From contig CAZLRK010000002.1 of NCBI GenBank assembly GCA_964561845.1, forward strand, positions 1-63,011: DNA of 63,011 bases, given 5' to 3'. Shown in pieces: positions 73 to 15,759 of the stretch. The notes under the pieces were generated by a model. That model was not told where the DNA came from and did no database searches. It saw only the letters and a list, made by a program, of their open reading frames with translations. Both the position numbers and the translations under genes were made by a program. Every line of letters starts with the position of its first letter. Within the stretch, counting starts at the first letter, position 1. The DNA is from an uncultured Desulfobacterales bacterium (GTDB taxonomy: Bacteria > Desulfobacterota > Desulfobacteria > Desulfobacterales > JAUVVS01).

Positions 73-351
73 TTATGCCATATCAAGGCTATCTACAATT
101 CCGACAACCACGGCGTCCACAGGAATCAGTCCTTCCCTATCAAATGCCTGCATGGCAGGCGCACCTTGAGTGACAATTACCATCTCTCCGATCCCTGCCC
201 CGATCTCATCGGCAGCCACAAAAATATCGCCTGCCGGAGCCTGATCCTTGCCCAGGGGCTGCACAAAGAGAAGTCTTAATGCGTGAATCTTGTCGTTTTT
301 CTTGGTCGACCAGACATCTCCCACAATTTTACCAAGTATCATAACTTCCAC
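73..351 (-). CDS. Bacterial microcompartment vertex protein, EutN/CcmL/PduN family (BMC-P)
   Basis: 92-aa ORF with family-typical sequence LGKIVGDVWST..LRLLFVQPL..VAADEIGAGIGEMVIV..PVDAVVVGIVD. Same strand as, and downstream of, two other shell genes. Confidence 0.88.
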   Translation of the reverse strand: MEVMILGKIVGDVWSTKKNDKIHALRLLFVQPLGKDQAPAGDIFVAADEIGAGIGEMVIVTQGAPAMQAFDREGLIPVDAVVVGIVDSLDMA

Positions 352-468
352 CTCTAATACCTGAACAGATAAACCCTATTATCCCGCTTTTCTCACAAGT
401 TTGATTTTTTCATTTGCTTAATCATAGGAGAAATTCTTCATGAGAAATGCGGGTTAGATGATCATAGA

Positions 469-771
469 TCACAACCCTTCCTCGGCGTTAATAGCATCTA
501 AGCTGGTTTTAACGGCCGCAACTTCGCCAAAGATACCTATCATAGTCAAATGTTGTGGGCACAGACCCTTGAGGTCAAAGACATGGACATTAGCTGCTTT
601 TTCTGCAATATCAGACGCATAAATCATATCCACCAATCTACCCTGAACAAGTCCTACGGCACTGAAATCTATGACTTCTAATGTCTTTTTGCCGGAAGGA
701 CCCATCCGATTCATTAGAATATTGATGACTCCTTTGCTAGGATGCGTTATTAACTGGATATTCAGTGCCAT
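469..771 (-). CDS. BMC shell protein, PduU/EutS-like (permuted BMC domain)
   Basis: 100-aa ORF. ASDIAEKAANVHVFDL..MIGIFGEVAAVKTSLDAI resembles the PduU/EutS class. It lies between BMC-H and BMC-P genes. Confidence 0.7.
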   Translation of the reverse strand: MALNIQLITHPSKGVINILMNRMGPSGKKTLEVIDFSAVGLVQGRLVDMIYASDIAEKAANVHVFDLKGLCPQHLTMIGIFGEVAAVKTSLDAINAEEGL

Positions 772-800
772 ATATAACCTTTTATAGATTCCAATGGTCG

Positions 801-1001
801 ATAATCAATAATCAGGTAATCGGTTATCAGTAATCGGTAATCGGTATTTGGCCTGTAAGTAAACTTTCCAGCCTGCCGAGTGTTGAGTTCAATGATTAAT
901 CCCACCCTCGGCGGGAATGATAGCTTTTGTTTTCAATATAGCAACCAATAACCGACTACCGGCGACCGATCACCGGTCACCGATCACCGATCACCGATAA
1001 T
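801..1001. repeat. Hairpin element with inverted heptamer arrays: left arm of (GGTAATC)-type units, right arm of (GATCACC)-type units, about 100-nt core
   Basis: Read directly. Left arm 801-846 is ataatcaataatcaggtaatcggttatcagtaatcggtaatcggta. Right arm 951-1001 is accgactaccggcgaccgatcaccggtcaccgatcaccgatcaccgataat. The core is homologous, in reverse orientation, to the core of 13121-13299. Confidence 0.9.
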
Positions 1002-1028
1002 ACTAGTGTTACACAAGAAAAGATGAAA

Positions 1029-1310
1029 CTACTCCTCGGCCTTCGGAATAGTAAACTCGATTTCGCTGTGTGGTCTTGGGATCACGTGGACCGAAACGAG
1101 TTCTCCAACTCGCTCGGCTGCTGCACCACCTGCATCCGTAGCGGCTTTTACTGCACCAACATCGCCGCGCACAAACACAGTAACCAAGCCTCCGCCCACA
1201 AACTCTCTACCCGTAAATTTGACTTTGGCTGCCTTTACCATAGCATCACTCGCCTCAATGGCGCCTACCAAGCCTCTTGTTTCAACCATACCCAACGCTT
1301 GTTCAGCCAT
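1029..1310 (-). CDS. BMC hexamer shell protein (BMC-H, PduA/EutM/CcmK-like)
   Basis: 93-aa [52 protein letters not shown] is a canonical BMC domain. Confidence 0.93.
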
Positions 1311-1357
1311 TCTTCTTTCCTCCTGATTTTAAATTGAGATTTAATTTAAAAAAACCA

Positions 1358-1903
1358 CTACCGCTTCAATCTAAACGCTCTCGCTGTCATTGATTGTTCT
1401 ATAGGTACTTCAATTGTGACAAGAACGGTTTGATCCATTTTTGTCGTCTTTCTAGCCGAAGTAACAGTTGCTTCACCCAACTCTTGCCCCGATCGATCCA
1501 AAGCTATTACATTTTCTCCCTTTTCAGGTAAAGGCAAAAACTCGTACGGCAGTGTTACTGAGGCTTTTGCGTCCGAAATGCTTTCATCTACCACAAAAAT
1601 GGCTTGCCCTGGACAAACATGAATGCAGGTCAGACATCCGATACACTTTTCTTCATCCAGGTAAGGCAAATTGGTGATATCATCTCCCACTGAAATTGCC
1701 TTAGCCTTACAACTTGTTTCACAGGGGTTACAGGGAATATCTTGAATACATTCAATAGTAGCCACTGCGCTCTTACGGCGTCTTGCCTCGGAAGGGATGC
1801 CTGGACTCTTTTTGAGCTCTTCCTCTGAAATATAACCTGTTGTAGATAATCCTTGGGGCATAAGCTTATTCTCATACCCTAATTGAGCGAAAATAATGCT
1901 CAA
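1358..1903 (-). CDS. 4Fe-4S ferredoxin-domain protein, probable electron-transfer subunit of the adjacent flavoprotein
   Basis: CIGCLTCIHVCPGQAIF cluster motif plus an upstream Cys-rich stretch CNPCETSC. The first 14 codons lie inside a repeated hairpin element, so the real start is more likely Met at 1861. Confidence 0.7.
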   Translation of the reverse strand: MSIIFAQLGYENKLMPQGLSTTGYISEEELKKSPGIPSEARRRKSAVATIECIQDIPCNPCETSCKAKAISVGDDITNLPYLDEEKCIGCLTCIHVCPGQAIFVVDESISDAKASVTLPYEFLPLPEKGENVIALDRSGQELGEATVTSARKTTKMDQTVLVTIEVPIEQSMTARAFRLKR

Positions 1904-1994
1904 TTAGGAGTTAATTGTTAATAGGTATTCGTTATTACAATTTGATGATCGTCCCATTAAACGATTAACAAATAACAAATAACGAATAACTCCC
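1878..1994. repeat. Hairpin cctaattgagc-N9-gctcaattagg (1878-1908) plus AATAACG-type inverted arrays; short relative of 14548-14752
   Basis: Perfect 11-bp stem read directly. Adjacent arms are ggagttaattgttaataggtattcgttatt and aacaaataacaaataacgaataactcc. Confidence 0.85.
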
Positions 1995-2002
1995 AATTGG
2001 GG

Positions 2003-3085
2003 TCATATCGCCATGTTTAGTTGTTCTTTTGCAACTCTCCTGGCATCTCCGTGAGTTCCGCTTCGCAATCCTTTCATACTCTGGAGCTGGCTGTCCCGCT
2101 GTTCAAAAAAAGGCTGCTCTTCCAGATAACCAAGGCTGTTAGCGATGGCTAAACCGGCGATTCGGCCTTCGATAATGGCTGTACTTGCCTCTTCAATACC
2201 GGAAGCATCTCCTGCCACATAAATGCCTTCAATCGATGTCTGTTGATTTATATCATGTGCAGGTACATTACCACCCAGATGGGGAACGAAAACCATTTTA
2301 CATCCCGGCATCTGCAGAAGCTGGGTCATGGGATTAAGGCCCACCGCTATGCAGATGGTATCCACATCAAATTTCTTTTCAGTTCCCGGAATCGATTTCC
2401 ATGAATCATCAACTTGAATTATTGTGGCTTTTTCCACCCTATTATCGCCGTTTGCCTCCTTTATTGTATGTGACATCAAGAAGGGCACTCCATAACGAGC
2501 TACCTTGGCAGCATGAACTCCGTAACCACCGATTTTTGGAGCTGCGTCTATAACAGCCGCAACCCTGCAACCGGCCTGAAGCATTTGGTAACTGACCACG
2601 AGGCCTACATTACCTGAACCGACCATAAGTAAATTGTTGCCCGGCCTTGTGCCATGGATGTTTGCTATAGTCTGAGCCGCCCCGGCGCCAATGACCCCCG
2701 GTAAGGTCCATCCAGGAAAGGGGATCATGCTTTCCGAGGCACCTGTGGCCACAAGGGTCTTTTCCGCCTTCACATGCTCAATACGATCATTTACCATTAC
2801 ATTTATAGTTCCATTTTCATAGATACCTAGCACTACCGATTTCAGAGAGACTTCAACGCCTATCTCACGTGCTTCATCCAGAAGGCTGTAACCGATATTA
2901 AATCCGCGTTCACGAGCACGATGTTCTTTTGAGCCGAAAAATTTATGTATCTGTTTGAAAAGCTGGCCTCCGGGTCGATCATTTTCATCAAAGACCACAA
3001 CCTGGACACCGTTTTTGGCAGCCTCAATAGCTGCAGCCAGTCCGGCCGGTCCTGCCCCAATACATATCATCTCACATCTTCTCAA
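2003..3085 (-). CDS. FAD/NAD(P)-binding pyridine nucleotide-disulfide oxidoreductase (SoxA N-terminal / HcnB / OoxA-like)
   Basis: ICIGAGPAGLAAAIEAAKNG dinucleotide fold near the N-terminus, a second GSGNVG fold and a C-terminal GDASG motif. The track start is TTG at 3085; ATG at 3070 is an alternative. Confidence 0.8.
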   Translation of the reverse strand: MRRCEMICIGAGPAGLAAAIEAAKNGVQVVVFDENDRPGGQLFKQIHKFFGSKEHRARERGFNIGYSLLDEAREIGVEVSLKSVVLGIYENGTINVMVNDRIEHVKAEKTLVATGASESMIPFPGWTLPGVIGAGAAQTIANIHGTRPGNNLLMVGSGNVGLVVSYQMLQAGCRVAAVIDAAPKIGGYGVHAAKVARYGVPFLMSHTIKEANGDNRVEKATIIQVDDSWKSIPGTEKKFDVDTICIAVGLNPMTQLLQMPGCKMVFVPHLGGNVPAHDINQQTSIEGIYVAGDASGIEEASTAIIEGRIAGLAIANSLGYLEEQPFFEQRDSQLQSMKGLRSGTHGDARRVAKEQLNMAI

Positions 3086-3100
3086 ATCTCACTCCGATGG

Positions 3101-3406
3101 CTATCTTGGTTCATTGCCTTTCTGAGTCTGAATGACCATTCCTTCTTTAAGAGGTTCCACACAGGTTCGCACGTTGAGCATTCCATCAACAATCATGATG
3201 CAGTCCGTGCACCGTCCTATGGCGCAGAACATTCCTCTGGGTTCGTTTCTTTTTGTCGTATATCGGTGAATCAGCACCCCATTACTTCTCAGGGCCACTG
3301 CAATGGGTTCACCTTCAAAGCCTTCCATTGTTTGACCGTCAAAGGTGAAATGGACTTTCCTGCCTTTCTCAAATTTTCCCAAAATAGGATGCTCATCAAT
3401 CCGCAT
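3101..3406 (-). CDS. Small (2Fe-2S)-binding protein (sarcosine oxidase alpha N-terminal / HcnA-like)
   Basis: 101-aa ORF. FTFDGQTMEGFEGEPIAVAL..MFCAIGRCTDCIMIVDG..VRTCVEP is typical of this small Fe-S subunit family. Confidence 0.72.
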   Translation of the reverse strand: MRIDEHPILGKFEKGRKVHFTFDGQTMEGFEGEPIAVALRSNGVLIHRYTTKRNEPRGMFCAIGRCTDCIMIVDGMLNVRTCVEPLKEGMVIQTQKGNEPR

Positions 3407-3420
3407 GATTAATTATCCCA

Positions 3421-4713
3421 TTAAAAAAAGCCAAACATTTCTGTAAAGGCAAAATTAGTACCGACAAGAGGAGTACCGGTCATAGCACATACTTCCAGGT
3501 TCAACGACCGCAAGTCTTCCCTCTCCATATTTGCTAAAGCAGTCTTACCCGCAGCTTTTGCAAGAAGAACAGCTTCATAAGTCATACCCTGGATATAGTT
3601 TGCTACTCTTTGAGCGGCAGCATCAATATTCAACTTTTTTCTGCGCTCAGGGTCCTGTGTTCCGATGCCAAAGGCACACTTTCCTTCATGGCATCGCAAA
3701 CAAACTACACATCCCATGGCAATCATTGCCCCGGTTCCAATAGCAACGGCATCGGCTCCCAGAGCTAAAGCCTTGGCAACGTCTGAACCGTCCTTAATTC
3801 CGCCCGAGACGATAAGGCTGACTTCATCCTTTACACCCAGCTCTTCCAGGGCTCGAACTCCCTGGACTAAAGCGGGAAGAGTTGGAATGCCAAGGTGTGT
3901 TGATGCGACTACGGGCGCGGCGCCGGTTCCACCTTCGGTGCCGTCAATAACAATTCCGTCAACACCGGTCTTAACGGCAATTTTGACGTCCTCTCTCACA
4001 CGTCCTGCAGCAATTTTACAGAATATGGGGATTTCGTAGTCGGTAACGTCCCTAAGTTCTTGTACCTTCAGGACCATGTCGTCAGCGCCAAATATATCAC
4101 CATGTCGTGGGTGGCTGTGAAGATCAATACCCTCGGGAAGTTGTCTAAAATCTGCAATCTCCTTGGTAATCTTGCTTCCCATCAGATGGCCGGCCAGACC
4201 AGGTTTGGCTCCAATACCGGTGATAACTTCAAGTGCATCCGCAGCTTCTATATTGCTTAGTGAGAAACCCATGCGGCTGGGAGTTATCTGGATAACCTGT
4301 TTATACGAATTGTCACGTTCTTCAGGCAATAACCCACCTTCACCATTATTAATTGAAGTTCCCACAATCTGGGTAGACTTGGCAAGCGCTGTCTTGGCCT
4401 CTTTGCTCAGGGCTCCATAAGACATACCGGAGATCATGATGGGAGTCTCAATGATCAGCGGTTTTTTGGCATATCGTGCTCCGAGGACAGTCTGGGTTTT
4501 ACAATCTTCCCGATAGGTATCTATAGAAAGACGTGAAAGCTGAGAAGGCAAGATTAAAAGATCATCAAAAGTAGGATACTTTTTCGTTGACCCACATCCT
4601 CGGATACGGTGTTTGCCCATTTCAGCCTTATATTTTACTTCAGCGATGGTTTCGGAGTTCCACACACCCCTCTGAACATCTTTGGCCTTGGGCTTTTTTG
4701 TTTTTTCTGTCAT
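3421..4713 (-). CDS. FMN-binding glutamate synthase domain-2 protein (GltB central domain; MgsC-like)
   Basis: 430-aa ORF. PIMISGMSYGALS, GEGG and IDGTEGGTGAAP motifs of the glutamate synthase FMN domain. 4-nt overlap with the upstream gene. Confidence 0.85.
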   Translation of the reverse strand: MTEKTKKPKAKDVQRGVWNSETIAEVKYKAEMGKHRIRGCGSTKKYPTFDDLLILPSQLSRLSIDTYREDCKTQTVLGARYAKKPLIIETPIMISGMSYGALSKEAKTALAKSTQIVGTSINNGEGGLLPEERDNSYKQVIQITPSRMGFSLSNIEAADALEVITGIGAKPGLAGHLMGSKITKEIADFRQLPEGIDLHSHPRHGDIFGADDMVLKVQELRDVTDYEIPIFCKIAAGRVREDVKIAVKTGVDGIVIDGTEGGTGAAPVVASTHLGIPTLPALVQGVRALEELGVKDEVSLIVSGGIKDGSDVAKALALGADAVAIGTGAMIAMGCVVCLRCHEGKCAFGIGTQDPERRKKLNIDAAAQRVANYIQGMTYEAVLLAKAAGKTALANMEREDLRSLNLEVCAMTGTPLVGTNFAFTEMFGFF

Positions 4714-5414
4714 GATTTTGTCCCCGTCTGTTTATGAGTTGGTTTGAACAGAAAGTATTCATGCCGCCCATAGACCTTCGGCACAATACTTCTAAAATCA
4801 TCTGTCCCCTGTTCGATGCCATATTTCTTAAATAGGGTTTCAACCTCCTTTTTTTCTTTGTCCTCGATAGGGATAACGTGCACATTCCCTCCGAGCTTAT
4901 CTTCCACTTCATTATCTAAGACATGAATAATTCCTTTATACATGGATTCACCGATTCCATTGCCGACCTTGCCTATAATGATGATTCGCCCCCCAAGGGT
5001 CATCTTGCCGCTCCATATTCCCACGTCTCCGCATACGATCAGATTGCCGCCCTTCATGCCCCAGCCTGCACGGCTTCCGCTGTGTCCTTTAACCACGATT
5101 GTGCCTCCGGCCATGGAAGGTGCACAATTGCTGCCGGTATTCATCTCTATGATGATTTCACCCGCATCCATATTATCGCCTGTATACCATCCGGTATTGC
5201 CCTTAACCAGGATGGTCGGTCCTTGAAGGAAACCTCCCGTGTAAAAACCGGTGCTGCCTTCCACATGGATTGTTCCCGTGCCTTTTAGGGCTGTGGCGAA
5301 ATTGTGTGCAGAGTGTGGGTTTTTTACTACGATTTCATCATCTTGTTGGATCAGCTCTTTTAGCTTTTTGTTCACATCCCTTGTGCCCATTCCTTTTATA
5401 TCTAAACTGACCAT
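4710..5414 (-). CDS. GXGXG-motif protein (glutamate synthase alpha C-terminal domain; MgsB-like)
   Basis: 234-aa ORF with repeated beta-helix G-x-G motifs (VKGNTGWYTGDNMDAGEIIIEMNTG..VVKGHSGSRAGWGMKGGNLIVCGDVG). Confidence 0.85.
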   Translation of the reverse strand: MVSLDIKGMGTRDVNKKLKELIQQDDEIVVKNPHSAHNFATALKGTGTIHVEGSTGFYTGGFLQGPTILVKGNTGWYTGDNMDAGEIIIEMNTGSNCAPSMAGGTIVVKGHSGSRAGWGMKGGNLIVCGDVGIWSGKMTLGGRIIIIGKVGNGIGESMYKGIIHVLDNEVEDKLGGNVHVIPIEDKEKKEVETLFKKYGIEQGTDDFRSIVPKVYGRHEYFLFKPTHKQTGTKS

Positions 5415-6301
5415 ACCTTTACACCTCCTGGTTCCATCTCCGTGGCATAGACATCGGAGACAATAGGGGTTAAAGAGATCTGCTCCGACCCGAAAAGTAC
5501 AGTGCCGTCATCACCTTCATAAATAACTAGTGGTTTAAAAGCCAACCTATCTCGAAAAGCTCCAATTTGATCACGGGTAGCTACAATGATTGTAAAAATT
5601 CCATCAAATGCGTCGAGTGCCGTATGAAGGGCCCCCTCCAGGTCCTGTCCTTTTTCTTTCATTTCATATGCTATAAAATGTGCAGCCATCTCAGTATCGT
5701 TTGCGGTTTTAAAGCGCACGCCCTTGTTTTCAAGGCTTCTTCTCATGTTAAAGTAGTTGGTAAATTGGCCGTTGTGAACAAGGGAGAGCTCTGGATAAAG
5801 ATAGGACACAAAGGGGTGCGCAAAATTAATATTTTCTACGCTTTCCGTAGCCAGCCGGACGTGTCCTATGCCGTGGCTGCATGTTCCTACCCTGATCTCA
5901 TGGCACTTTATGATATCTTCCGCCGAACCTTGATCTTTATAAACCTTGATCTTTTGGCCGATGGAGTGAACACAGAGCTCGGAATTGGAATCTATGTCCC
6001 AGTGCAGTTTGGTAACCTGGTTTGGGTCCATGTCTATGGTCCCCTCAAAGAAGGTAAAGACGCCTACACCGGCATAGCTTATGGAATTTTTAATTTTACC
6101 GTAAGCCTGGATTAAGTTATGAAGATCTTTTTCGTACGCCGGGTCCGTGATAGAGACGCGAACCTGAATTTCTTCCCGTTGTTCATAGATAGCCATCCCG
6201 GTGGCGTCGCGACCTCGATGGACCAGCTCTTTGAGCATATTTGTCAGGTCGGTTCCAAGAGTATCACTATTTTTGGCAATAAGCCCTGCTATTCCGCACA
6301 T
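5402..6301 (-). CDS. Class II glutamine amidotransferase-like protein (GltB N-terminal domain; MgsA-like)
   Basis: 299-aa ORF starting MCGIAG (Ntn Cys after Met). 13-nt overlap with the downstream gene. Confidence 0.85.
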   Translation of the reverse strand: MCGIAGLIAKNSDTLGTDLTNMLKELVHRGRDATGMAIYEQREEIQVRVSITDPAYEKDLHNLIQAYGKIKNSISYAGVGVFTFFEGTIDMDPNQVTKLHWDIDSNSELCVHSIGQKIKVYKDQGSAEDIIKCHEIRVGTCSHGIGHVRLATESVENINFAHPFVSYLYPELSLVHNGQFTNYFNMRRSLENKGVRFKTANDTEMAAHFIAYEMKEKGQDLEGALHTALDAFDGIFTIIVATRDQIGAFRDRLAFKPLVIYEGDDGTVLFGSEQISLTPIVSDVYATEMEPGGVKVWSV

Positions 6302-6402
6302 GATATTCCTCTAATTTTTAAAAATGATTATAATGAATAGCCAACCGTAGATCTCCGCCGTATATCTACGACAGATGAATAATAGGTTGGCTGGCCTTAT
6401 GC

Positions 6403-7740
6403 CTATAATAGAGCAGAGTACTCTCTAAACTCCCAATCAGTAACATGTGTGCGAAAACGCGCAAGTTCGTCTTCCTTGAGGGCCACAAAAGCCTGAATTA
6501 ATTCCTGACCCATTGCGTCACACAGCACCTTGTCATTTTTTAGTTCTTCCAAAGCATCTCTTAGATAAAATGGAATAGTTTCATATGTGCCCGGTTCCAC
6601 GCCGTAAATGTCTCCCACAGCGTGCTCACCCGGATCAATTTTGTTTTCTATGCCGTCCAGTCCTGCGGCAAAAGCAGCGGCAAAAGCCAGATAAGGATTT
6701 GCAGATGCACAAGGGGCACGGTTTTCGACCCGGGTGGCTTTCCCTCTTTCATCGGGAACACGGCAATATACTGTTCGGTTATCAAGACCCCAGGCCAGAT
6801 AATAAGGTGCAAATGAGTCGGGAACATAGCGCTTGTAAGAATTAATGGTCGGAGCAAGCAGAGCCGACATTCCCTTAGCATGGGCCATCTGGCCTCCTAT
6901 GAAGTACCGCATCAGCTCAGATATTCCGAATTTCCCGTTGGGATCATTGAAAAGGTTTTTACGAGTCTTAGGATCGCTCAATGAAAAATGAATATGGTAG
7001 CCGCTTCCGCCGCCTTCTGTTGTGGGACGGCCCATGAAAGTCAGGTGAAGATTATTCTGGGCGGCAACCTCTTTGCATACATACTTGAAAGTAAAAGATT
7101 GGTCGGCCGTAGTCAAAGCATGGTCGTATTTCCAGTTGATCTCAAACTGACTGGGGAAAAACTCATGGTTGAGATATATAATATCGAGGCCCAGTTGTAA
7201 AAAGGTGTTTTGAAGAGTCCTGAGTAATCCCAGCCGGTCTATTGCAGGATTAAGCTGGTAAACATTACTCAGGTTGGGATTATATAACTCGCCGGGACCG
7301 CTTTCAGAAGGGTTGAAAAGAAAGAACTCAAGTTCTGAGGCTGCAACAGGCCGATAGCCCTTTTCTTCATATTTTTTTAAAATCCTTTGAAGGGCATAAC
7401 GCGGATCAACTCCTATTGGTTTACCCTCTCGAAAAGCGTTGCCGATTAAACGTGCCGTCCTTTCAAGATGCGGCAAAACGGCAAATGTATTTAGATCAGG
7501 CATTATGGTCATGTCCTTCCATTCGATCTCATAACCGCATCCTGTTCCCGGAGCAACGTCGTTGGCCAGGTGTATGCCATAAATTGCCTGGGCAAAGTTG
7601 ATGCCTTCTTCCACCACCTCTTCAAGGCGTTTGGCAGGCAGTATCTTATTCCGGCAAATTCCATAAAGGTCAGGATACTCAATGCGCAAGGTGTCTATGT
7701 TGTCTGCTTTTATCCTTTCCTGAATTTCTTTAATGTCCAT
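6403..7740 (-). CDS. Glutamine synthetase family ligase (GmaS / PuuA-like gamma-glutamyl-amide synthetase candidate)
   Basis: GS fold motifs (ELEFFLF, GSGYHIHFSL, NRTVYCRVP, ENRAPCASANPYLAFAA). Start moved to the Met at 7740, which follows a GGAGG Shine-Dalgarno. The track ORF extends to 7782. Confidence 0.85.
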   Translation of the reverse strand: MDIKEIQERIKADNIDTLRIEYPDLYGICRNKILPAKRLEEVVEEGINFAQAIYGIHLANDVAPGTGCGYEIEWKDMTIMPDLNTFAVLPHLERTARLIGNAFREGKPIGVDPRYALQRILKKYEEKGYRPVAASELEFFLFNPSESGPGELYNPNLSNVYQLNPAIDRLGLLRTLQNTFLQLGLDIIYLNHEFFPSQFEINWKYDHALTTADQSFTFKYVCKEVAAQNNLHLTFMGRPTTEGGGSGYHIHFSLSDPKTRKNLFNDPNGKFGISELMRYFIGGQMAHAKGMSALLAPTINSYKRYVPDSFAPYYLAWGLDNRTVYCRVPDERGKATRVENRAPCASANPYLAFAAAFAAGLDGIENKIDPGEHAVGDIYGVEPGTYETIPFYLRDALEELKNDKVLCDAMGQELIQAFVALKEDELARFRTHVTDWEFREYSALL

Positions 7741-8063
7741 TGTTATTCCTCCTCTTAAAAAAAGTATCTGGATGAAAACCAAAAAACATTTTTAAGTATA
7801 CTTTGTATATTTTATTTCATTAATATTGTCAAGTAAATAATTATTAAAACTGCAAAATTTAGAATAATATCTGTATATATTTATTTAAATAAATATATCA
7901 AATAGTTATTGAGTTGTAAAATGTAATAATTAATTTTTTTTAATTTTAAATTGTAATATTTCTTACATAATTATTGATGCTTTCATAAAAAGTGCAATTT
8001 ACTCGCTCTGTGACCATTTCCGGGGGATCCCTGCTGTATTTTTCAGACATACCTTTATCTCTT

Positions 8064-8091
8064 GATGAATTCGTAAAAAGTCGAATTCATC
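8064..8091. repeat. Perfect 10-bp hairpin gatgaattcg-taaaaagt-cgaattcatc
   Basis: Read directly. It shares the cgtaaaaag motif with the 18401-18560 region. Confidence 0.8.
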
Positions 8092-8093
8092 AC

Positions 8094-8178
8094 GTTTTAG
8101 GTTTTAAGTGTTAGGCTTGAAGTTATGGTATTACAATTATTTACATATACTTAAAACTTAAAACCCTAAACTTAAAAC
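8094..8178. repeat. Hairpin element with inverted octamer arrays (GTTTTAAG/GTTTTAGG type)
   Basis: Left arm gttttaggttttaagtgttagg. Right arm cttaaaacttaaaaccctaaacttaaaac. Confidence 0.85.
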
Positions 8179-8220
8179 AGAAAATTTTTTACTTTTAACG
8201 AAACCGTCAAGTATAACTAT

Positions 8221-8280
8221 CCGATTACTTAATTACCGATCACCGATTACCTATCACCTATCACCGATCACCAATCACCT
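8221..8280. repeat. Single-arm heptamer array (GATCACC/TATCACC/GATTACC units) abutting the livF-like stop codon
   Basis: ccgattacttaattaccgatcaccgattacctatcacctatcaccgatcaccaatcacct, read directly. Confidence 0.85.
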
Positions 8281-8983
8281 ATATGCCAAAGTATGTCTCT
8301 TGAATGTATTTTTCTTGCTTCAATTCTTCGGGTTTACCTTTCATCTTTACTCTGCCTGTTTCTAAAAGATAGATTTCCTCAGCAAGTGTGAGGGCAAAGT
8401 TTACATTCTGTTCGGTGATGATGATGGAAATTCCCTTTCTTTTTTTTAGATCCTTTAGAGCGCTGGATATTTCAGAACATACCAGTGGTGCAAGGCCTAT
8501 AGTTGGTTCATCTACTAATAACAGCTTAGGATTTGACATTAGAGCTCTTGCAAGTGATAACATTTGCTGCTCTCCGCCGCTCTGGGTGCCGGCTTCTTGA
8601 TTATGGCGTTTTTCAAGGACAGGGAACATTTCAAATACCATTTCAAGATTATTTTCTATCTCTTTTTTAGCACAATAGGCTCCAACCAAAAGATTCTCTT
8701 TTACGGTCATGAAGGGAAAGAGGTTTCTTCTTTCCGGGGCATAGCCAATACCTAACCCAACAATTTTTGCAGGGGATAGCCTTCTTAAATCTACACCATC
8801 AAAAACGATTTGACCGATACAATTTGTAAGACCAATAATAGAATCTAGTAATGTCGATTTCCCCGCACCATTGGGGCCAATTATGCTTACAATCTGTCCT
8901 TTTTCCACAGTAAAGGAAACTTTTCTTAAGGAACAGGCCTTTCCATAAAAGACCTCGAGATCTTTGACTTCTAAAAAAGCCAT
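8279..8983 (-). CDS. livF: Branched-chain amino acid (HAAT family) ABC transporter, ATP-binding protein LivF-like
   Basis: Walker A GPNGAGKST, signature SGGEQQML, Walker B LLLVDEP; 234 aa is typical of LivF. Confidence 0.85.
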   Translation of the reverse strand: MAFLEVKDLEVFYGKACSLRKVSFTVEKGQIVSIIGPNGAGKSTLLDSIIGLTNCIGQIVFDGVDLRRLSPAKIVGLGIGYAPERRNLFPFMTVKENLLVGAYCAKKEIENNLEMVFEMFPVLEKRHNQEAGTQSGGEQQMLSLARALMSNPKLLLVDEPTIGLAPLVCSEISSALKDLKKRKGISIIITEQNVNFALTLAEEIYLLETGRVKMKGKPEELKQEKYIQETYFGI

Positions 8984-9010
8984 TATTGCTTTTTCCTCTC
9001 GATATTGGTG

Positions 9011-9754
9011 TTAAACGTCATCGTCTTTTTTCCCCAGGTATGCTTCCTGTACCTTCTCATCCGAAATAACTTCCTCAAAAGACCCCTCGGCAATAGTTTG
9101 ACCAAAAGAAACAACAACAACTCTATCTACTAAAGGGGCTAAAGATCTTAAGTCATGACTTACAATTATGAACGTCAAACCTTCTTCATTTTTCTTTTTT
9201 AAAAGCTCTGATAATTCAGAAATTTCTCCCACCGTCAGCCCGGCAAATACCTCATCAAGCAAGAGTAGTTTTGGTTTGGTGGCTATAGTCCTGGCCAACT
9301 CGAGTCTGCGAAGATTCCCCATGGAAAGCTCATAGGGATACATTGAAAGCTCATCCTCTTGAAAACCGACACTTTTTCCAATTTTTCTTTCTTGTTCACT
9401 CTGGGCGTTCATGGTAATTATGCGTAATATTTCATCCGGCATAATCCCAACTCTGATATTTTCAGTTACTGTCATTTCACTAAAGGGTCTGGGTGTTTGG
9501 TAGGTGCGAGCAATGCCCATTTTTAGCCTTTTATGGGTCGGATACTTTGTAATCTCTTTCCCTTCAAAGAAGATTTCCCCTTCATCTTGCTTGAGTTCAT
9601 TCATGATCATGTTAAAAACTGTAGTCTTTCCGGCGCCATTTGGTCCTATCAAACCAAGAGTCTCTCCTTTTTCCACAAAAAAGCTTAAATCGAAAACGGC
9701 AAAGAGTCCTCCAAATTTTTTAGTAAGTCCTTGCACTTCAAGCAACTTAGCCAT
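9011..9754 (-). CDS. livG: HAAT family ABC transporter, ATP-binding protein LivG-like
   Basis: GPNGAGKTT, LLLLDEV and the C-terminal EAYLG tail typical of LivG. Confidence 0.85.
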   Translation of the reverse strand: MAKLLEVQGLTKKFGGLFAVFDLSFFVEKGETLGLIGPNGAGKTTVFNMIMNELKQDEGEIFFEGKEITKYPTHKRLKMGIARTYQTPRPFSEMTVTENIRVGIMPDEILRIITMNAQSEQERKIGKSVGFQEDELSMYPYELSMGNLRRLELARTIATKPKLLLLDEVFAGLTVGEISELSELLKKKNEEGLTFIIVSHDLRSLAPLVDRVVVVSFGQTIAEGSFEEVISDEKVQEAYLGKKDDDV

Positions 9755-10700
9755 ATTGCCAACCTCTTCTCATCTTCTTTCTAAACCATTTAATTATAGC
9801 CTGGATGATACTGTAAAGACCTTTTGGCGCGTAGTAGTAGACAACTAACGCAATTACTCCATAGAGGAGAAATCGCCACGCGCCTGGAACATAGGGGCGC
9901 AAATACTCTAAGAGAAACGTAAGAAAGTATGCCCCGATAATTGGCCCCACAATGCTCTGCTCACCGCCGATCAGGGCTGCAATGAGTATGGTAAAAAGGA
10001 AATTGATGTCAAACATGTTTCTTGGGGATATGGAGCCCAGATAGTGAGTGTATAAGGCTCCTCCAATGCCTGCTACCAATGCACTCAAAGTGAAGGCAAA
10101 CAACTTCAATTTTGTAGTATTCAAACCAGAACTCTTTACGGCTCCCTCATCCATGCGAATAGCACCCAGAGCAGTTCCCATACCTGACCTTGATATTGCC
10201 CATAATCCTATTGCAATCAGGAACATGAAAAGAAAGGAAACATAATAATTAGGAATTGCGCCTGTAACCAGAAATGGTAATCCTGTAAGGCCTCTGGTTC
10301 CGCCCGTTAATTTCGGCTTCACAACATTCATTAAATGATACGTTACTTCCATAAAGGCGAGCGTGACGAGGGCAAAGTATGTTCCTCTCGTCCTCAAAGC
10401 GGGTAAGAAGAAAAGTATTCCAGCTATCATTGTCACGAGAACAGCCAAAGGAATACTCAGATAGAGCGGCGTGTTCAAATGACTAGTGAGCATAGCTGTT
10501 GTGTAGCCTGCAATGCCGATTAAGAAAGGATGCCCAAAACTTATGTAGCCCGTATATCCCGAGAGAATATCCCAGCTCATGGCAAAAATCGCCAGGAAGT
10601 TAGCAAATATGAATATTCTAAGGTTTCCTGGAGAGGTGAAAGTTGGAATTAGACACATCACTGTCCCAAAAATTAGCCACCATGGTAATGCTTTTCTCAA
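9747..10700 (-). CDS. livM: HAAT family ABC transporter permease LivM-like
   Basis: 317-aa polytopic membrane ORF. GYTGYISFGH motif. Overlaps livG-like by 8 nt. Confidence 0.8.
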   Translation of the reverse strand: MRKALPWWLIFGTVMCLIPTFTSPGNLRIFIFANFLAIFAMSWDILSGYTGYISFGHPFLIGIAGYTTAMLTSHLNTPLYLSIPLAVLVTMIAGILFFLPALRTRGTYFALVTLAFMEVTYHLMNVVKPKLTGGTRGLTGLPFLVTGAIPNYYVSFLFMFLIAIGLWAISRSGMGTALGAIRMDEGAVKSSGLNTTKLKLFAFTLSALVAGIGGALYTHYLGSISPRNMFDINFLFTILIAALIGGEQSIVGPIIGAYFLTFLLEYLRPYVPGAWRFLLYGVIALVVYYYAPKGLYSIIQAIIKWFRKKMRRGWQYG

Positions 10701-10715
10701 GGTATCCCCCTTGTT

Positions 10716-11567
10716 TCAGATCTCTTCCCTTCCAAGTAAGCCCTTCGGGACAATGACAAGAATTATAATGATAAGCAACATCGTGGAAACACCCCTTAAT
10801 TCCGGAGCGATCACCGACGTGGTAATTGTTTCAAGGAATCCGACGATATGGGCTGCCACCAGACTCCCCATGATACTGCCGATTCCTCCTACAATCACGA
10901 CCGCAACGGCGATTATGAGAGGAAACACCCACATGGCCGGGTCCAGCTGAGTATAGGTCGCAAAAAACACACCTGCAATGGCCCCCAATGCCCCGGACAA
11001 AGCCCACGTAACAATATTTATCCTTTGAGGGTCGATTCCTGAAACTACTGCACCCTTCATATCCATAGATACGGCACTAATAGCTCTTCCAAGATGCGTT
11101 TTTCGAACAAAAAGCAGTAAGGATCCTAAAACTACCCAGCTTATAATCATCGCAAGAAATATATTCCACGAAATAGCAACGCCAAATGCACGGGTAACTC
11201 CGGGGATGATGGGCCAGATGGCTCTAGGGGCAGGTGAAAAAATCAGAATGACGGCAGCTTGCATGACCACTGCTAAAATAAGGGTCGAGATTTCCACTGC
11301 AATGGGATTATCCTGAAGACGTCTGACCAAAACTACATAGGTTAATACGCCAAAAGTAACACCGGCTAAGACGGCGCCAAAAAAACTCGGGATCTTTGGG
11401 AGACCTAATTCCTGAGCTAACACATAATAGACATATCCTCCGAGCATAATGTATACACCGTAAGCTAGATTCAGCACCCTCCCAACGCTAAATATCATTG
11501 TAAATCCTACCGCAATTAGTGCATAAAGTCCGCTTATGAGAAAGCTCTGAATTATTATACTGACCAT
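10716..11567 (-). CDS. livH: HAAT family ABC transporter permease LivH-like
   Basis: 283-aa polytopic membrane ORF in standard LivH position. Confidence 0.8.
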   Translation of the reverse strand: MVSIIIQSFLISGLYALIAVGFTMIFSVGRVLNLAYGVYIMLGGYVYYVLAQELGLPKIPSFFGAVLAGVTFGVLTYVVLVRRLQDNPIAVEISTLILAVVMQAAVILIFSPAPRAIWPIIPGVTRAFGVAISWNIFLAMIISWVVLGSLLLFVRKTHLGRAISAVSMDMKGAVVSGIDPQRINIVTWALSGALGAIAGVFFATYTQLDPAMWVFPLIIAVAVVIVGGIGSIMGSLVAAHIVGFLETITTSVIAPELRGVSTMLLIIIILVIVPKGLLGREEI

Positions 11568-11736
11568 CTTATTCTCACGTTTAATTATGTTACATTATTC
11601 CAAAAAGAACAGTTTTCATGGTTGAAAAATGAGTGAAATTTTTAGACAAGATAACAGGAACAAGGGGGTTTTTCTTCCCTTGTTCCTGTCCGGTTGAATG
11701 TAAATATTTACTACTGCCCCTCAAACCCTAAATCGG

Positions 11737-13053
11737 TTACTTCTTTGCCCATTCAGGGACGACAAAATCGCCATTAGCATATTTGGGAGGATAGACACAT
11801 TTTACCGTTCCGTCTGTGTACCACTGAATAACAATAACCGATGGGTGTCCATCTGTGAGGGGTTGAGAAATATCAAATTTTACGTTGTGCGGATATGTTG
11901 CATTGGTTCTGGGCTCAATCTCACCTGGTTTCCAATAACCATACCTGAGCCAGAGCTTGCCATCCTTATAAAGTTTGATATCTTCGTTTTCCATCTCTTT
12001 AACCCAGGCATTCAGGGGCTTAAATCCACCTGCACGCTCAGCTGCATTGACAGCATTGTAAATGCCGTAATAAGCATTAAAGCCATTAAAATGAGGATAT
12101 CGTGGACGGCTCTTGTACTTTGCCTGGTACTTTTTGATGAATTTCTCAGTCCGTGGGTCCATCTCCATCCCCAAAGTAGGTGGCGGCATCAAAGTGGACA
12201 TGCCGCCTCCCATTCCCCCAGTGTCTTTCCAATACTCCATGCCAACTGCAGCAACATTTATACCGGTAATTGGAATAGGAACCTGCAATTTGACATATTG
12301 AGATGTTGGCACTACACATTTAACCGAGGAAATAATATATATAAAATCAGGGTTTGTTTTTGTAATCTTTGAATAAATGGGGCTGAAATCCACAGTATTT
12401 ACGTCATAGACAACGTGATCCAGCATTTCGACACCGGCCTCGGGTAAAATATAATCCTTAATAAATCCATAAACTCCGCCACCATAAGCAGTGTCTTCCT
12501 GCATAATGACACACGTTTTCCAGCCCATCTTCTTCTGGAGAATGTCCTTTGCAAAATCTATATACTGGGTGCCTAAAGCATCATCGGTAGGGACATTCAT
12601 GAAATACATCTTGTGTTTTTCGTAATCCTTCCGGATCATATCTATGATCCCAACGTATGAGGTCCAGGTGTCCAGCGTGGGGGTCCTGTATTCCACCATT
12701 CGTGGTATCCATCCTAATGAAACATCATCTATGCAGCCGGAAATAATAAAATCCACCTTTTGCTTTTCATTAAGATATTCATAGGCCTTAATTCCCTCGG
12801 TTACATCTTGTGCTGTATCAGCTTTTACAAGTTTTATGGGACGGCCTCCTAAAATTCCCCCGGCTTTATTAAACTCTTCAATTGCAATTGCAGCACCCCT
12901 TAAAGTGCTTTTACCGGTATCGCTGTCAAAGGATCCGATAAATCCGATTACCACGGGCTTCTTGGACGAAGAGGCCAGTGTATTACCAGCACAGAGCAAA
13001 AAAATTGAAATTGCTATGACCGTTAAAGAAATTAACCATGTTTTTCTCTTCAT
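11737..13053 (-). CDS. Periplasmic substrate-binding protein of the Liv-type ABC system (Peripla_BP_6-like)
   Basis: Signal-peptide-like N-terminus (KRKTWLISLTVIAISIFLLCAGNTLA) then a type I PBP-like sequence. Start set at the Met preceded by GGAGG (13053); the track ORF extends to 13068. Confidence 0.8.
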   Translation of the reverse strand: MKRKTWLISLTVIAISIFLLCAGNTLASSSKKPVVIGFIGSFDSDTGKSTLRGAAIAIEEFNKAGGILGGRPIKLVKADTAQDVTEGIKAYEYLNEKQKVDFIISGCIDDVSLGWIPRMVEYRTPTLDTWTSYVGIIDMIRKDYEKHKMYFMNVPTDDALGTQYIDFAKDILQKKMGWKTCVIMQEDTAYGGGVYGFIKDYILPEAGVEMLDHVVYDVNTVDFSPIYSKITKTNPDFIYIISSVKCVVPTSQYVKLQVPIPITGINVAAVGMEYWKDTGGMGGGMSTLMPPPTLGMEMDPRTEKFIKKYQAKYKSRPRYPHFNGFNAYYGIYNAVNAAERAGGFKPLNAWVKEMENEDIKLYKDGKLWLRYGYWKPGEIEPRTNATYPHNVKFDISQPLTDGHPSVIVIQWYTDGTVKCVYPPKYANGDFVVPEWAKK

Positions 13054-13120
13054 TTTTGCACCTCCCATTTGAATGTTGGTGTAATAGTTCAGCTATTTTT
13101 CTTAGAATTGTTCTTGTCAG

Positions 13121-13299
13121 GGTTCAGGTGATCAGTGAACGGGTGATCAGGTAATCGGTGATCAAGTGATCGGTTGTTGGTTGCAATATTGAGAACATAA
13201 GCTATCAGATTTTTTAATCATTGAATTCAAAATTCCTCCGATCGAAGCATAACGTTCCAGCTTAACACCGATTACCGGTTACCCGATCACCGATCACTT
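13121..13299. repeat. Hairpin element with inverted heptamer arrays (GGTGATC type); homolog of 801-1001 in opposite orientation
   Basis: Left arm ggttcaggtgatcagtgaacgggtgatcaggtaatcggtgatcaagtgatcgg. Right arm caccgattaccggttacccgatcaccgatcactt. The core cggttgttggttgcaatattgagaacataagctatca..ttaatcattgaa matches the reverse complement of the 801-1001 core. Confidence 0.9.
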
Positions 13300-14397: not shown

Positions 14398-14547
14398 GAC
14401 GCCTCCTTATTAATAAATATGAAAAGACATGCTCATATGTTTCTTTTATAATCAATTTTATCCTGATGTGTCAAGATGAGAGGATCCTACAGCAATATAC
14501 AAACCTTACTTGCAATCCGGAGCTTTTTTGCATATGGATGTGATAGT

Positions 14548-14752: not shown

Positions 14753-14775
14753 GTTGAAATAAAAGGAGGTAAAAT

Positions 14776-15702: not shown

Positions 15703-15759
15703 ACTGTGAACCCTTTAACCCAACTTTTGTGTTAAAAACGAAGCTTTTTATCCAAAATA

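Follow-up and report, generated by a model that had tools for sequence, protein, structure and literature searches.

A glutamine synthetase-like ligase, a split glutamate synthase-like enzyme, and a flavin dehydrogenase are linked to a MIC6-type microcompartment shell in Desulfobacterales, in a candidate amine metabolosome locus

We analyzed a stretch of 63,011 nucleotides (nt) from an uncultured Desulfobacterales bacterium (NCBI GenBank assembly GCA_964561845.1, contig CAZLRK010000002.1, positions 1 to 63,011), and the whole of this stretch is referred to here as the window. Next to its left edge, the minus strand carried ten co-directional, head-to-tail genes for a glutamine synthetase (GS)-like ligase, three proteins related to domains of glutamate synthase (hereafter the trio), three redox proteins, and three bacterial microcompartment (BMC) shell proteins. 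The ten genes, their order, and their domains had been named in a first-pass annotation, and all of them were confirmed by the open reading frame (ORF) listing and by Pfam and NCBIfam searches. The features, in the direction of transcription, were as follows (aa, amino acids).

7741-8278, minus strand: AT-rich 538-nt spacer upstream of the ligase gene
6403-7740, minus strand: GS-like ATP-dependent ligase, 445 aa (PF00120, 362 bits)
5402-6301, minus strand: class II (Ntn) glutamine amidotransferase-like subunit, GlxB/MgsA-like, 299 aa (GATase_6/7)
4710-5414, minus strand: GXGXG-domain subunit, GlxC/MgsB-like, 234 aa (PF01493, 77.6 bits)
3421-4713, minus strand: FMN-binding glutamate synthase-domain subunit, GlxD/MgsC-like, 430 aa (PF01645, 341 bits)
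3101-3406, minus strand: Fer2_4 [2Fe-2S] subunit, 101 aa (PF13510, 101 bits)
2003-3085, minus strand: FAD/NAD(P) Pyr_redox_2 subunit, 355-360 aa (PF07992, 116 bits)
1358-1861, minus strand: protein with a 2x[4Fe-4S] ferredoxin domain (Fer4), 167 aa (Fer4 family matches)
1029-1310, minus strand: BMC-H hexamer shell protein, 93 aa (PF00936, 94.6 bits)
469-771, minus strand: GrpU-type permuted BMC-H shell protein, 100 aa (PF00936, 34.7 bits; GrpU structures)
73-351, minus strand: BMC-P pentamer (vertex) shell protein, 89-92 aa (PF03319, 94.6 bits)
1-72: noncoding tail past the BMC-P gene and reproducible assembly break

The spacings along the string were -13, -4, 14, 15, about 100 to 140, 47, 257, and about 120 nt. 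The two negative values were an overlap of 13 nt between the amidotransferase and GXGXG genes and an overlap of 4 nt between the GXGXG and FMN genes. The ligase gene had been given a TTG start at 7782, which was not borne out; the true start was the ATG at 7740, which yielded a 445-aa protein and was preceded by a strong Shine-Dalgarno sequence, AAGAGGAGG, located 7 nt ahead of it. Because a 538-nt AT-rich spacer lay before the ligase gene, the string probably had its own promoter, separate from the ABC transporter genes farther upstream, and this promoter probably lies within the spacer and serves both the enzyme and the shell genes. The best σ70-like hexamer pair in the spacer (7920 to 7892, minus strand, 10 of 12 matches, with a TG) was a consensus match only, and the count of such sites was not above that in shuffled sequences. 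When the spacer was scanned, no σ54-type promoter was found upstream of the ligase gene. Consensus scans for terminators and promoters gave counts close to those expected after shuffling and were uninformative, and no Rfam families, including riboswitches, were found near the operon. At the end of the spacer far from the ligase gene, directly past the stop of the ABC transporter ATPase gene, was a tandem repeat (8221 to 8282) that could be read as 6.4 copies of the 7-nt unit ACCGATC or, alternatively, as 2.9 copies of a 21-nt period.

The two PF00936 genes (1029 to 1310 and 469 to 771) clustered with a PF03319 gene (73 to 351), as is general in BMC loci. The BMC-H protein was EutM-like (130 bits in NCBIfam) and was 83 to 96% identical in relatives. 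The protein encoded at 469 to 771 had been described as a PduU/EutS-like BMC protein; the fold class was right, but the subtype was GrpU, since its only significant PDB matches were the GrpU structures 4OLO and 4OLP and its GLCPQH sequence aligned with the GrpU CPQ motif. This GrpU-type protein had 167 homolog clusters at an E value of ≤1e-10, and its pore is predicted to bind an Fe-S cluster.

A GrpU-type BMC-Hp, a BMC-H, and one BMC-P, in DNA whose closest genomes were Desulfobacterales, matched the window locus to MIC6, a BMC locus type catalogued by Sutter, Melnicki, Schulz, Woyke & Kerfeld (2021, Nat Commun 12:3809, Supplementary Data 2; PMC8217296). The MIC6 entry comprises 3 loci from anaerobic Deltaproteobacteria (Desulfobacteraceae) that are listed without a function (PMC8217296). 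Its shell set consists of two BMC-H proteins, one BMC-P, two CcmP-like BMC-Tdp proteins, a PduT-type BMC-Ts, and a GrpU-type BMC-Hp, and its accessory proteins include a [2Fe-2S] protein of pfam04324, an oxidoreductase of pfam01266 that bears a 4xCys tail at its C terminus, and an aldehyde dehydrogenase (AldDh) with an N-terminal encapsulation peptide (EP) (PMC8217296). The ortholog of the window GrpU protein, B1H13_00910, is classed as the GrpU-type BMC-Hp of MIC6, and in the catalogue example a 99-aa GrpU-like protein is followed by a 92-aa BMC-P (PMC8217296). Gene sizes and order matched those of the catalogue tags B1H13_00910, _00915, _00925, _00940, and _00955. The window held the first three shell genes only; the further MIC6 parts (PduS to AldDh) were present in relatives' loci L010, L035, L066, L067, L071, L075, and L077, and none of them was in the window.

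The relatives' loci and the catalogue entry shared the shell set, PduS, EutJ, the pfam04324 protein, the pfam01266 protein with the 4xCys tail, the EP-bearing AldDh, and the taxon. In contrast, the ligase, amidotransferase, GXGXG, Glu_synthase, Fer2_4, Pyr_redox_2, and Fer4 genes are unmentioned in the entry. Specifically, PF01645, PF01493, GATase, PF13510, and PF07992 were absent from the catalogue text and its table of hidden Markov models, and PF00120 was listed for MIC2 only. Full-text literature searches, including searches for MIC6 and for Desulfobacterota BMCs, found no paper tying a microcompartment to N-methylglutamate (NMG) or gamma-glutamylation. The first-pass annotation had stated that no BMC locus type built around these enzymes was known. 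That statement failed for the locus type, which was already catalogued as MIC6, and stood for the ligase and glutamate synthase-like genes, which go unmentioned there. The locus type is therefore known, and its link to these enzymes and any functional proposal appear to be new.

To examine the linkage in other genomes, we queried a set of genomes, one for each species, with the FMN subunit, an enzyme query that was chosen to keep the test of shell linkage unbiased. Of the 56 loci that were retrieved, nearly all belonged to Desulfobacterales or other Thermodesulfobacteriota. One of them, L013 (CAVWAT010000015.1), was titled "uncultured Alphaproteobacteria bacterium"; its FMN subunit was 88% identical to those of Desulfobacterales loci and grouped with them, and the taxonomic label or bin is probably wrong. 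We then considered the 38 species-level close-clade loci with at least 3.4 kb of sequence after the FMN gene. In 37 of these, BMC-H, GrpU, and BMC-P genes followed the enzyme block in the same order, with BMC-P kept at the same position in all 37. The linked loci came from Desulfobacterales, Desulfarculia, and other Thermodesulfobacteriota, with FMN-subunit identities as low as 77%. The sole exception, L060, had an EP-bearing AldDh gene directly after the FMN gene and nested in the same clade. In the Desulfobacula loci L052 and L054, the order was permuted and the shell genes were interleaved with the enzyme genes. The enzyme-shell arrangement is far beyond chance. A lack of such linkage in relatives had been named beforehand as a possible refutation of the proposed connection, and the linkage was kept. 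Relative to the catalogue, at least 37 species-level loci were found here, with the ligase-to-Fer4 genes as constant members.

Full loci were found in L066, L067, L071, L075, and L077 to L079, where all genes were on one strand with short gaps. The first part of the order was that of the window: ligase, amidotransferase, GXGXG, FMN, Fer2_4, Pyr_redox_2, Fer4, BMC-H, GrpU, and BMC-P. Past BMC-P came PduS, a PduT-type BMC-Ts, EutJ, a protein of about 270 aa, a CcmP-like BMC-Tdp, and a second BMC-H, and these were followed by a BFD/SoxA-A3 protein (hereafter BFD/A3), a DAO flavoprotein, a second CcmP-like BMC-Tdp, an RpiR/SIS regulator, and finally one or two EutE/PduP-type acylating AldDh genes. 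The window thus held 10 of the about 21 genes of this locus type, and roughly 11 were missing from it. Outside the ligase-to-AldDh block, the flanks varied between species.

The 4xCys tail, pore motifs, and encapsulation peptide of MIC6 were verified in the relatives' loci: the DAO protein had a C-terminal 4xCys tail, the PduT-type BMC-T had a pore Cys, and the AldDh, which scored 529 bits on NF011927 (cutoff, 403), had an amphipathic helix at its N terminus. EP-like helices were also found in the N-terminal extension of BFD/A3 and at the N terminus of the ~270-aa protein. No EP-like or other BMC-specific extension was found on the ligase or the trio, whose lengths equaled those of shell-less orthologs. 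Encapsulation peptide-like termini had been suggested as something to look for on the enzymes, and they turned up on the AldDh and BFD/A3, but not on the ligase and trio. Similarly, a BMC-T, an acylating AldDh, and a SoxB-like dehydrogenase (DAO) had been sought to the left of the window genes and were all present in the relatives, but the phosphotransacylase that had been sought with them was present in no locus.

The full loci contained no phosphotransacylase (PF06130 or PF01515) and no alcohol dehydrogenase, such that of the canonical metabolosome core (AldDh, phosphotransacylase, and alcohol dehydrogenase) only the AldDh was present. The usual signature enzymes had been reported as not visible, and indeed no B12-dependent lyase, glycyl-radical enzyme, or aldolase was present in the loci. 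The EUT, PDU, and GRM metabolosomes share with these loci an EP-bearing acylating AldDh of the EutE/PduP family, BMC-H, BMC-P, and BMC-T proteins, PduS with PduT, and EutJ, and a GrpU shell protein is common to GRM and MIC6-type loci. They differ from the loci described here in the signature lyases, radical enzymes, or aldolases and in the completeness of the core; here, the candidate aldehyde-generating enzyme is a flavin/Fe-S dehydrogenase.

Several minor features were noted in the individual relatives. The genes past AldDh differed from species to species (L071, 21176 to 21338; L075, 17223 to 18755; L077, 1 to 1473 and 19884 to 21335). A RidA gene (imine/enamine deaminase family) followed the AldDh gene and ended the locus in L071 and L075, which fits the imine chemistry of DAO-type oxidation. 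A CN_hydrolase gene (nitrilase/omega-amidase superfamily) was found in one locus, and Amidohydro_3 genes lay on both flanks of another. A similar short motif, of the form (I/V)(S/T)P(A/L)A.DL(I/A)(K/R)E, occurred at the N terminus of BFD/A3 (e.g., L066, 15443 to 15580) and at the C terminus of the ~270-aa protein (e.g., L066, 14250 to 14309), and it may be a shared shell- or partner-binding element. The ~270-aa protein also weakly matched TIGR02536, a hypothetical family of EUT loci.

The redox proteins corresponded to the subunits of HcnABC, opine oxidase, and PDH1, with Fer2_4 and Pyr_redox_2 encoded in the window and BFD/A3 and DAO encoded in the relatives' loci only. The Fer2_4 subunit matched SoxA residues 10 to 99 and was HcnA-like or SoxA N terminus-like. 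For the Pyr_redox_2 subunit, the best NCBIfam match was soxA (model positions 168 to 498) and the best PDB matches were 2GAG_A (SoxA) and 1Y56_A; this subunit equals the middle of SoxA or the front of HcnB/OoxA. The best PDB match of the relatives' DAO protein was 1Y56_B, the beta subunit of the P. horikoshii L-proline dehydrogenase (187 bits), and the next matches were glycine oxidase, dimethylglycine dehydrogenase, and SoxB. The Fer4 protein consisted of a 2x[4Fe-4S] domain and a C-terminal domain of about 60 aa and had generic ferredoxin PDB matches only. Fer4 was found in 41 of the 56 loci, and a free-standing Fer4 gene was found in BMC-linked loci only.

MgdABCD and heterotetrameric sarcosine oxidase have a SoxA of ~1000 aa with a GCV_T domain, together with SoxB, SoxD, and SoxG. 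The enzyme set here was not of this kind: no GCV_T/folate domain, SoxD, or SoxG was found in the window or in any relative locus. The folate-binding domain lets sarcosine oxidase and N-methylglutamate dehydrogenase pass a one-carbon unit to tetrahydrofolate. Because no locus encoded such a domain, a free aldehyde would be the expected product, and a free aldehyde is the classical reason for a shell; the encapsulated acylating AldDh would be there to consume it. Enzymes of the PDH1/HcnABC/opine oxidase type oxidize the C-N bonds of secondary amines or glycine. PDH1 (1Y56), HcnABC, and OoxAB/NoxAB have the same parts as the set described here, namely a DAO catalytic subunit, Pyr_redox_2 (plus BFD), and Fer2_4, with or without a ferredoxin. 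In contrast to these enzymes, the Pyr_redox_2 and BFD/A3 parts were split in the BMC loci, with the shell genes between them, the DAO protein had a 4xCys tail, BFD/A3 bore an EP-like extension at its N terminus, and the whole set was linked to the ligase and trio.

The same enzymes also occurred without a shell. The shell-less relatives (Desulfobacter curvatus, SAR324, and some unclassified Proteobacteria, at 72 to 76% FMN-subunit identity) had a contiguous module in the order ligase, trio, Fer2_4, a fused Pyr_redox_2-BFD-A3 protein (465 to 490 aa), and DAO, and in the SAR324 group the 2x[4Fe-4S] domain was fused to DAO. In the BMC loci, Pyr_redox_2 (about 360 aa) lacked the BFD/A3 tail, and BFD/A3 was a separate gene beyond the shell block, with an N-terminal extension of about 110 to 140 aa that included the EP-like amphipathic helix; the Cys-rich tail of DAO was likewise a gain relative to the shell-less loci. 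Since the shell-less loci keep the ligase, trio, and dehydrogenase together, the shell block splits an existing enzyme unit. The first-pass description of the shell genes as appended to the enzyme operon was therefore not borne out; they are embedded between Pyr_redox_2/Fer4 and BFD-A3/DAO. In a tree of the FMN subunit, the BMC-linked loci formed one clade, with D. curvatus as the sister and the SAR324 group basal, a pattern that fits a single recruitment of the shell into an existing pathway. In the cultivated strain D. curvatus DSM 3379 (L065), the module was directly followed by a gene for a 1042-aa NAD-glutamate dehydrogenase (14254 to 17382), which fits nitrogen leaving via glutamate.

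These observations bear on the idea that the ligase-to-Fer4 genes are a nitrogen operon that happens to lie beside an unrelated MIC6 operon, whose signature enzyme would be elsewhere or yet to be identified. The proteins encoded by the ligase, amidotransferase, GXGXG, and FMN genes had no EP-like extensions, the catalogue did not count the ligase and trio genes in MIC6, and the window shell genes were separated by gaps of 257 and roughly 120 nt, all of which would be in keeping with two neighboring operons. Against this stand the adjacency in 37 of 38 loci, which persists at FMN-subunit identities as low as 77%, and the Desulfobacula loci, in which the order was permuted and yet the genes were interleaved. 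In addition, the dehydrogenase subunits flanked the shell block and were contiguous, with two parts fused, in the shell-less relatives, and the consensus scan (counts near shuffles) found no convincing terminator between Fer4 and BMC-H. We consider a coincidental neighborhood highly improbable. Chance adjacency as such was rejected on the 37/38 linkage, the interleaved Desulfobacula order, and the split of the dehydrogenase across the shell block.

The ligase scored below the cutoffs of all NCBIfam GS families: it reached 328.7 bits on GlnA (TIGR00653; cutoff, 429.15), 320.5 bits on the GSIII/GmaS model TIGR03105 (cutoff, 469.6), and 269 bits on the gamma-glutamylputrescine synthetase model (cutoff, 650). 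In the window protein and in every ortholog with a readable motif, the Glu of the Glu flap was replaced with Phe (DSFAPY), and the Asp50' motif (FDGSS) was not conserved in the window protein or in the orthologs where it was readable. With neither the TIGR00653 score nor the flap Glu, the ligase was not a type I GS, and the loss of the ammonium site argues against ammonia as its substrate. GmaS has also lost the GS ammonium-site residues, with Trp300 and Ala48' in RhGmaS at those positions, and the catalytic Asp177 (RhGmaS numbering) is strictly conserved in GmaS homologs (PMC7948447). The ligase had the motif NHEFF (LNHEFF in the window) in place of DHEDA in GmaS and HHEVA in GS; the Asn at the Asp177-equivalent site was invariant in about 46 orthologs with a readable motif, and Glu186 was conserved. 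At this site, GlnT of Rhizobium etli reads NDHEDA. The ligase thus resembled GmaS in the ammonium-site loss but not in the TIGR03105 score or at Asp177. It forms its own clade by sequence, and its predicted activity is that of a gamma-glutamyl-amine synthetase and not of a glutamine synthetase.

For the trio, the reference was the R. etli pRetIE4803a glxBCD-glnT-soxBDAG-purU cluster of the NMG pathway. Full-length identities to the R. etli proteins were 32% (GlnT), 34% (GlxB), 29% (GlxC), and 47% (GlxD), and the trio alignments covered 93 to 98% of the length of GlxB, GlxC, and GlxD. Three separate full-length homologs of MgsABC/GlxBCD therefore lay beside the GS-like ligase. The amidotransferase began with MCGI, and its Cys1 nucleophile was conserved in 49 orthologs. 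The only solved relatives of the FMN subunit were GltS FMN domains. The subunit contained the motif G-C-VVCLR-C-HEGK-C (C-x5-C-x4-C, the ligands of a [3Fe-4S] cluster) in the window and in all 56 orthologs, and at this site GlxD of R. etli, the only MgsC reference that was compared, had a 16-residue Cys-free insertion. Classical N-methylglutamate synthase chemistry is redox-neutral. The retained [3Fe-4S] ligands suggest that the reaction of the trio takes or gives electrons via Fe-S partners. A shell-less proteobacterial locus, L059, contained two tandem amidotransferase-GXGXG-FMN trios (8381 to 11281 and 11321 to 14219), and the [3Fe-4S] Cys motif was present in the first of these and absent from the second, which was 49% identical; thus, Fe-S-containing and MgsC-like forms coexist in one operon.

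The loci shared with the R. etli NMG pathway the GS-like ligase, the separate amidotransferase, GXGXG, and FMN proteins, and a linked SoxA/SoxB-related dehydrogenase. They differed from it in the Asn in place of Asp177 of the ligase, in the [3Fe-4S] ligands of the FMN subunit, which have no counterpart in GlxD, and in the absence of a GCV_T domain, SoxD, SoxG, purU, and folate-linked genes. In addition, their hosts are strict anaerobes, and an acylating AldDh enclosed in a protein shell would deal with the aldehyde. We rejected the canonical NMG pathway because none of the three defining features that were tested was found. The GmaS/MgsABC architecture that had been recognized in the window was thus right as to the four-gene set and the full-length homology, and wrong as to orthology, given the TIGR03105 score, the Asp177-to-Asn replacement, and the retained [3Fe-4S] site. 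By sequence, the enzymes are homologous, not orthologous, to GmaS/MgsABC.

The ligase and trio could also be read as a dedicated GS-glutamate synthase system. In this alternative, the encapsulated DAO enzyme would directly deaminate a primary amine or amino acid to yield an aldehyde or keto acid, the ligase and trio would trap the released ammonia as glutamate, and the dehydrogenase electrons would drive this reaction via Fer2_4, Pyr_redox_2, and Fer4, with no gamma-glutamyl-amide or N-alkylglutamate intermediate. Such recapture of ammonia would account for the [3Fe-4S] ligands of the FMN subunit and Cys1 of the amidotransferase, which are kept as in glutamate synthase, for the true GS enzymes that are the top solved relatives of the ligase, and for the position of the Fer2_4, Pyr_redox_2, and Fer4 genes directly after the FMN gene; the large NAD-glutamate dehydrogenase after the D. 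curvatus module and the RidA genes at the ends of L071 and L075 would also suit it. However, the flap Glu and the Asp50' motif that the ligase lacks are both regarded as essential in GS, and the ligase fails all of the NCBIfam GS cutoffs. Furthermore, DAO relatives with such partners (SoxAB, PDH1, and opine oxidase) act on secondary amines, and a tie to a shell in 37 of 38 genomes is not what one would expect of a housekeeping-type GS-glutamate synthase pair. We regard ammonia recapture as unlikely. An ordinary GS-glutamate synthase system was rejected because the ligase lacks the ammonium-site residues.

Taken together, the gene content points with moderate confidence to an amine metabolosome, in which a primary amine would be converted to an aldehyde in an ATP-dependent manner via gamma-glutamyl and N-alkylglutamate intermediates, encoded by a MIC6-type locus whose 5' half is in the window. 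The amine would be imported by a HAAT-type ABC transporter, and the GS-like ligase, without its ammonium-site residues, would convert it to a gamma-glutamyl-amide. The trio would then move the amine nitrogen with its alkyl group onto a 2-oxoglutarate/glutamate skeleton to give an N-alkylglutamate. As the FMN subunit keeps the [3Fe-4S] site, the trio probably works like glutamate synthase, which requires two electrons, and this step would probably be a reductive condensation on 2-oxoglutarate. Next, Fer2_4, Pyr_redox_2, Fer4, BFD/SoxA-A3, and DAO would oxidize the N-alkyl bond to yield glutamate and a free aldehyde, and the encapsulated EutE/PduP-type AldDh would convert the aldehyde to an acyl-CoA inside the shell. 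The electrons from the oxidation could go back to the condensation or leave via PduS and via Fe-S pores in the shell proteins of the PduT and GrpU types. Overall, the reaction would be amine + 2-oxoglutarate + ATP -> aldehyde + glutamate. Because EP-like helices were found on BFD/A3, the ~270-aa protein, and the AldDh and not on the ligase or trio, formation and consumption of the aldehyde probably take place inside the shell, and the ligase and synthase may lie outside it. Methylamine may be the substrate, in which case formaldehyde would be the product. In proposing enclosed release of an aldehyde by an amine metabolosome, the first-pass annotation gained strong support from the SoxB-like DAO, BMC-T, and EP-bearing AldDh found in the same string in relatives; it did not hold in the details, as the enzymes are distinct from gmaS/mgsABC proper and a phosphotransacylase is missing.

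Several findings weigh against an amine metabolosome of this kind. The ligase has Asn in place of the catalytic Asp177 and is not a GmaS, so the suggestion of amine ligation comes only from the lost ammonium-site residues. Its best-scoring solved relatives were type I GS enzymes (265 bits, versus 221 and 202 for the GmaS structures), and in the ligase tree BMC-linked and shell-less loci were not cleanly resolved from each other. Exactly at a cofactor site, the FMN subunit departs from MgsC, the one biochemically understood N-alkylglutamate synthase, and it could be a genuine glutamate synthase. The full loci have no phosphotransacylase or alcohol dehydrogenase with which to recycle CoA and NAD. 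The ligase and trio carry no BMC-specific extensions, and their physical link to the organelle is one that we infer. RpiR/SIS regulators usually sense phosphosugars, and the one inside the locus does not obviously fit a simple alkylamine. Finally, of the about 21 genes, the window copy has 10, and no PduS gene comes after its BMC-P gene.

The regulator and the dehydrogenase bear on another possibility, in which an imported N-substituted amino acid (proline or hydroxyproline, sarcosine, or an opine- or Amadori-type N-alkyl glutamine or glutamate) would be the secondary amine that DAO cleaves in the shell, and the ligase and trio would process the glutamine, glutamate, or amine product. The closest solved relative of DAO is an L-proline dehydrogenase (1Y56_B), and the subunit set is that of opine oxidase, HcnABC, and archaeal PDH1. 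An RpiR/SIS protein is a typical sensor of sugar derivatives, HAAT transporters mostly carry amino acids and amides, and CN_hydrolase (omega-amidase-like) and amidohydrolase genes flank some of the loci. What such a substrate leaves without a clear role is an ATP-dependent ligase that lacks an ammonium site. No partners of the dehydrogenase are more tightly conserved than the ligase and trio, with or without a shell. In the case of proline, the product would be 1-pyrroline-5-carboxylate/glutamate semialdehyde, for which an acylating EutE/PduP-type AldDh is not a known route. These points make an N-substituted amino acid a doubtful choice, and the amine metabolosome remained our preferred reading.

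A more specific form of the amine metabolosome can be drawn, and we offer it tentatively, as an improbable possibility. MIC6 would be a redox-wired organelle with which strictly anaerobic marine sulfate reducers oxidize small primary amines, possibly methylamine or ethylamine, and that needs no B12, glycyl radicals, oxygen, or folate and whose electrons recross the shell. A cytosolic ligase and an Fe-S "alkylamine glutamate synthase" would make the N-alkylglutamate, the encapsulated dehydrogenase would free formaldehyde or acetaldehyde, and the two electrons would return via the GrpU and PduT pores to the synthase. If so, this would be the first metabolosome with a dehydrogenase as its signature enzyme and the first in which a circuit of electrons is closed across the shell of a microcompartment. 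Were methylamine the substrate, the locus would provide a direct genetic means of asking if methanogens and sulfate reducers compete for the so-called "non-competitive" methylamines in marine sediments.

The known aldehyde-forming signature enzymes of BMCs are B12-dependent lyases, glycyl-radical enzymes, aldolases, and an aminotransferase, and about a dozen catalogued BMC types, MIC6 among them, have no assigned function. The present results give MIC6 a concrete signature that can be tested, namely, a GS-like ligase, a split Fe-S glutamate synthase-like enzyme, and a PDH1/HcnABC-type dehydrogenase, and they expand it from 3 known loci to dozens of Desulfobacterota species, with carriers from marine sediments, oxygen-minimum zones, and worm symbionts. 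The shell-less module offers a natural comparison with and without a shell. Two of the enzyme clades, the ligase with NHEFF and a Phe flap and the MgsC-like FMN protein with a [3Fe-4S] site, differ in catalytic or cofactor residues from the relatives that have been characterized. Confirmation of the pathway would add a new anaerobic route by which sulfate reducers turn over amine carbon and nitrogen, as well as a model for electron transfer through shell proteins.

In the window, the stop of the BMC-P gene was at base 73, and the 72 nt from there to the edge were AT-rich and noncoding. In L001 and L004, which are from the same population, this tail reached 137 nt and was AT-rich, with no PduS start. 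In all of the relatives, PduS began 0 to 30 nt past BMC-P. The string had been expected to continue off the left edge, and every relative's locus does continue; in the window organism, however, the 72 or 137 nt were noncoding and contained no PduS N terminus. All 20 indexed contigs of the population (exact-protein index) ended within 137 nt of BMC-P. These contigs came from many JGI and ENA samples; L001 (10700 to 10836) and L004 (3431 to 3567) ended at the identical base, and L007 and L009 ended within 1 nt of it. The shared break suggests a repeat, mobile element, or strain-variable junction that splits or truncates the locus in the window organism. Two exact-match scans of the metagenome collection, one with the 39-mer at the contig end and one with the final part of the BMC-P gene, gave no match that would extend the contig leftward. 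The terminal sequence was not repeated inside the window and had no significant fold (z = -0.19), and tblastn found no other locus parts elsewhere in the window. A search with PduS homologs for the second half of the locus in the window organism, together with contigs P0135, P0131, P0140, and P0147, yielded other species only, and the closest complete locus of another species shared about 74% DNA identity with the window.

Two further features lay upstream of the ligase gene and its spacer.

8279-13068, minus strand: HAAT (Liv)-type ABC transporter with two ATPases, two permeases, and a Peripla_BP_6 binding protein
13675-14397, minus strand: Peptidase_C26/PuuD-like gamma-glutamyl hydrolase, 240 aa (PF07722, 189 bits)

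The HAAT-type transporter is a candidate importer of the substrate. It was conserved upstream in a subset of loci only (L010, L013, L016, L019, L023, L026, L028, L032, and L071), and a similar transporter was found inside the shell-less SAR324 module. The solved relatives of the binding protein were too remote to name a ligand. The Peptidase_C26 protein scored 116 bits on NCBIfam PuuD (cutoff, 266), and its gene was absent upstream in L010. This PuuD-like gene is not conserved with the locus; it encodes a possible accessory enzyme and hints at gamma-glutamylated intermediates. In L060, a GATase1/C26-like gene (15049 to 15789) followed the AldDh genes.

Farther along the window, a match to group II intron D1-D4 (RF02003, 58.4 bits, above the gathering score) was found on the plus strand at 48038 to 48170, and it had no neighboring long plus-strand ORF when ORFs of 150 aa or more were considered. 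A segment of about 1.3 kb in direct duplication (about 41928 to 43269 and about 49524 to 50865; spacing, 7596 nt) was 99 to 100% identical in the reported parts and bracketed an aminotransferase gene, a σ54 activator gene, and the group II intron fragment. This duplication could be a segmental duplication or a composite element.

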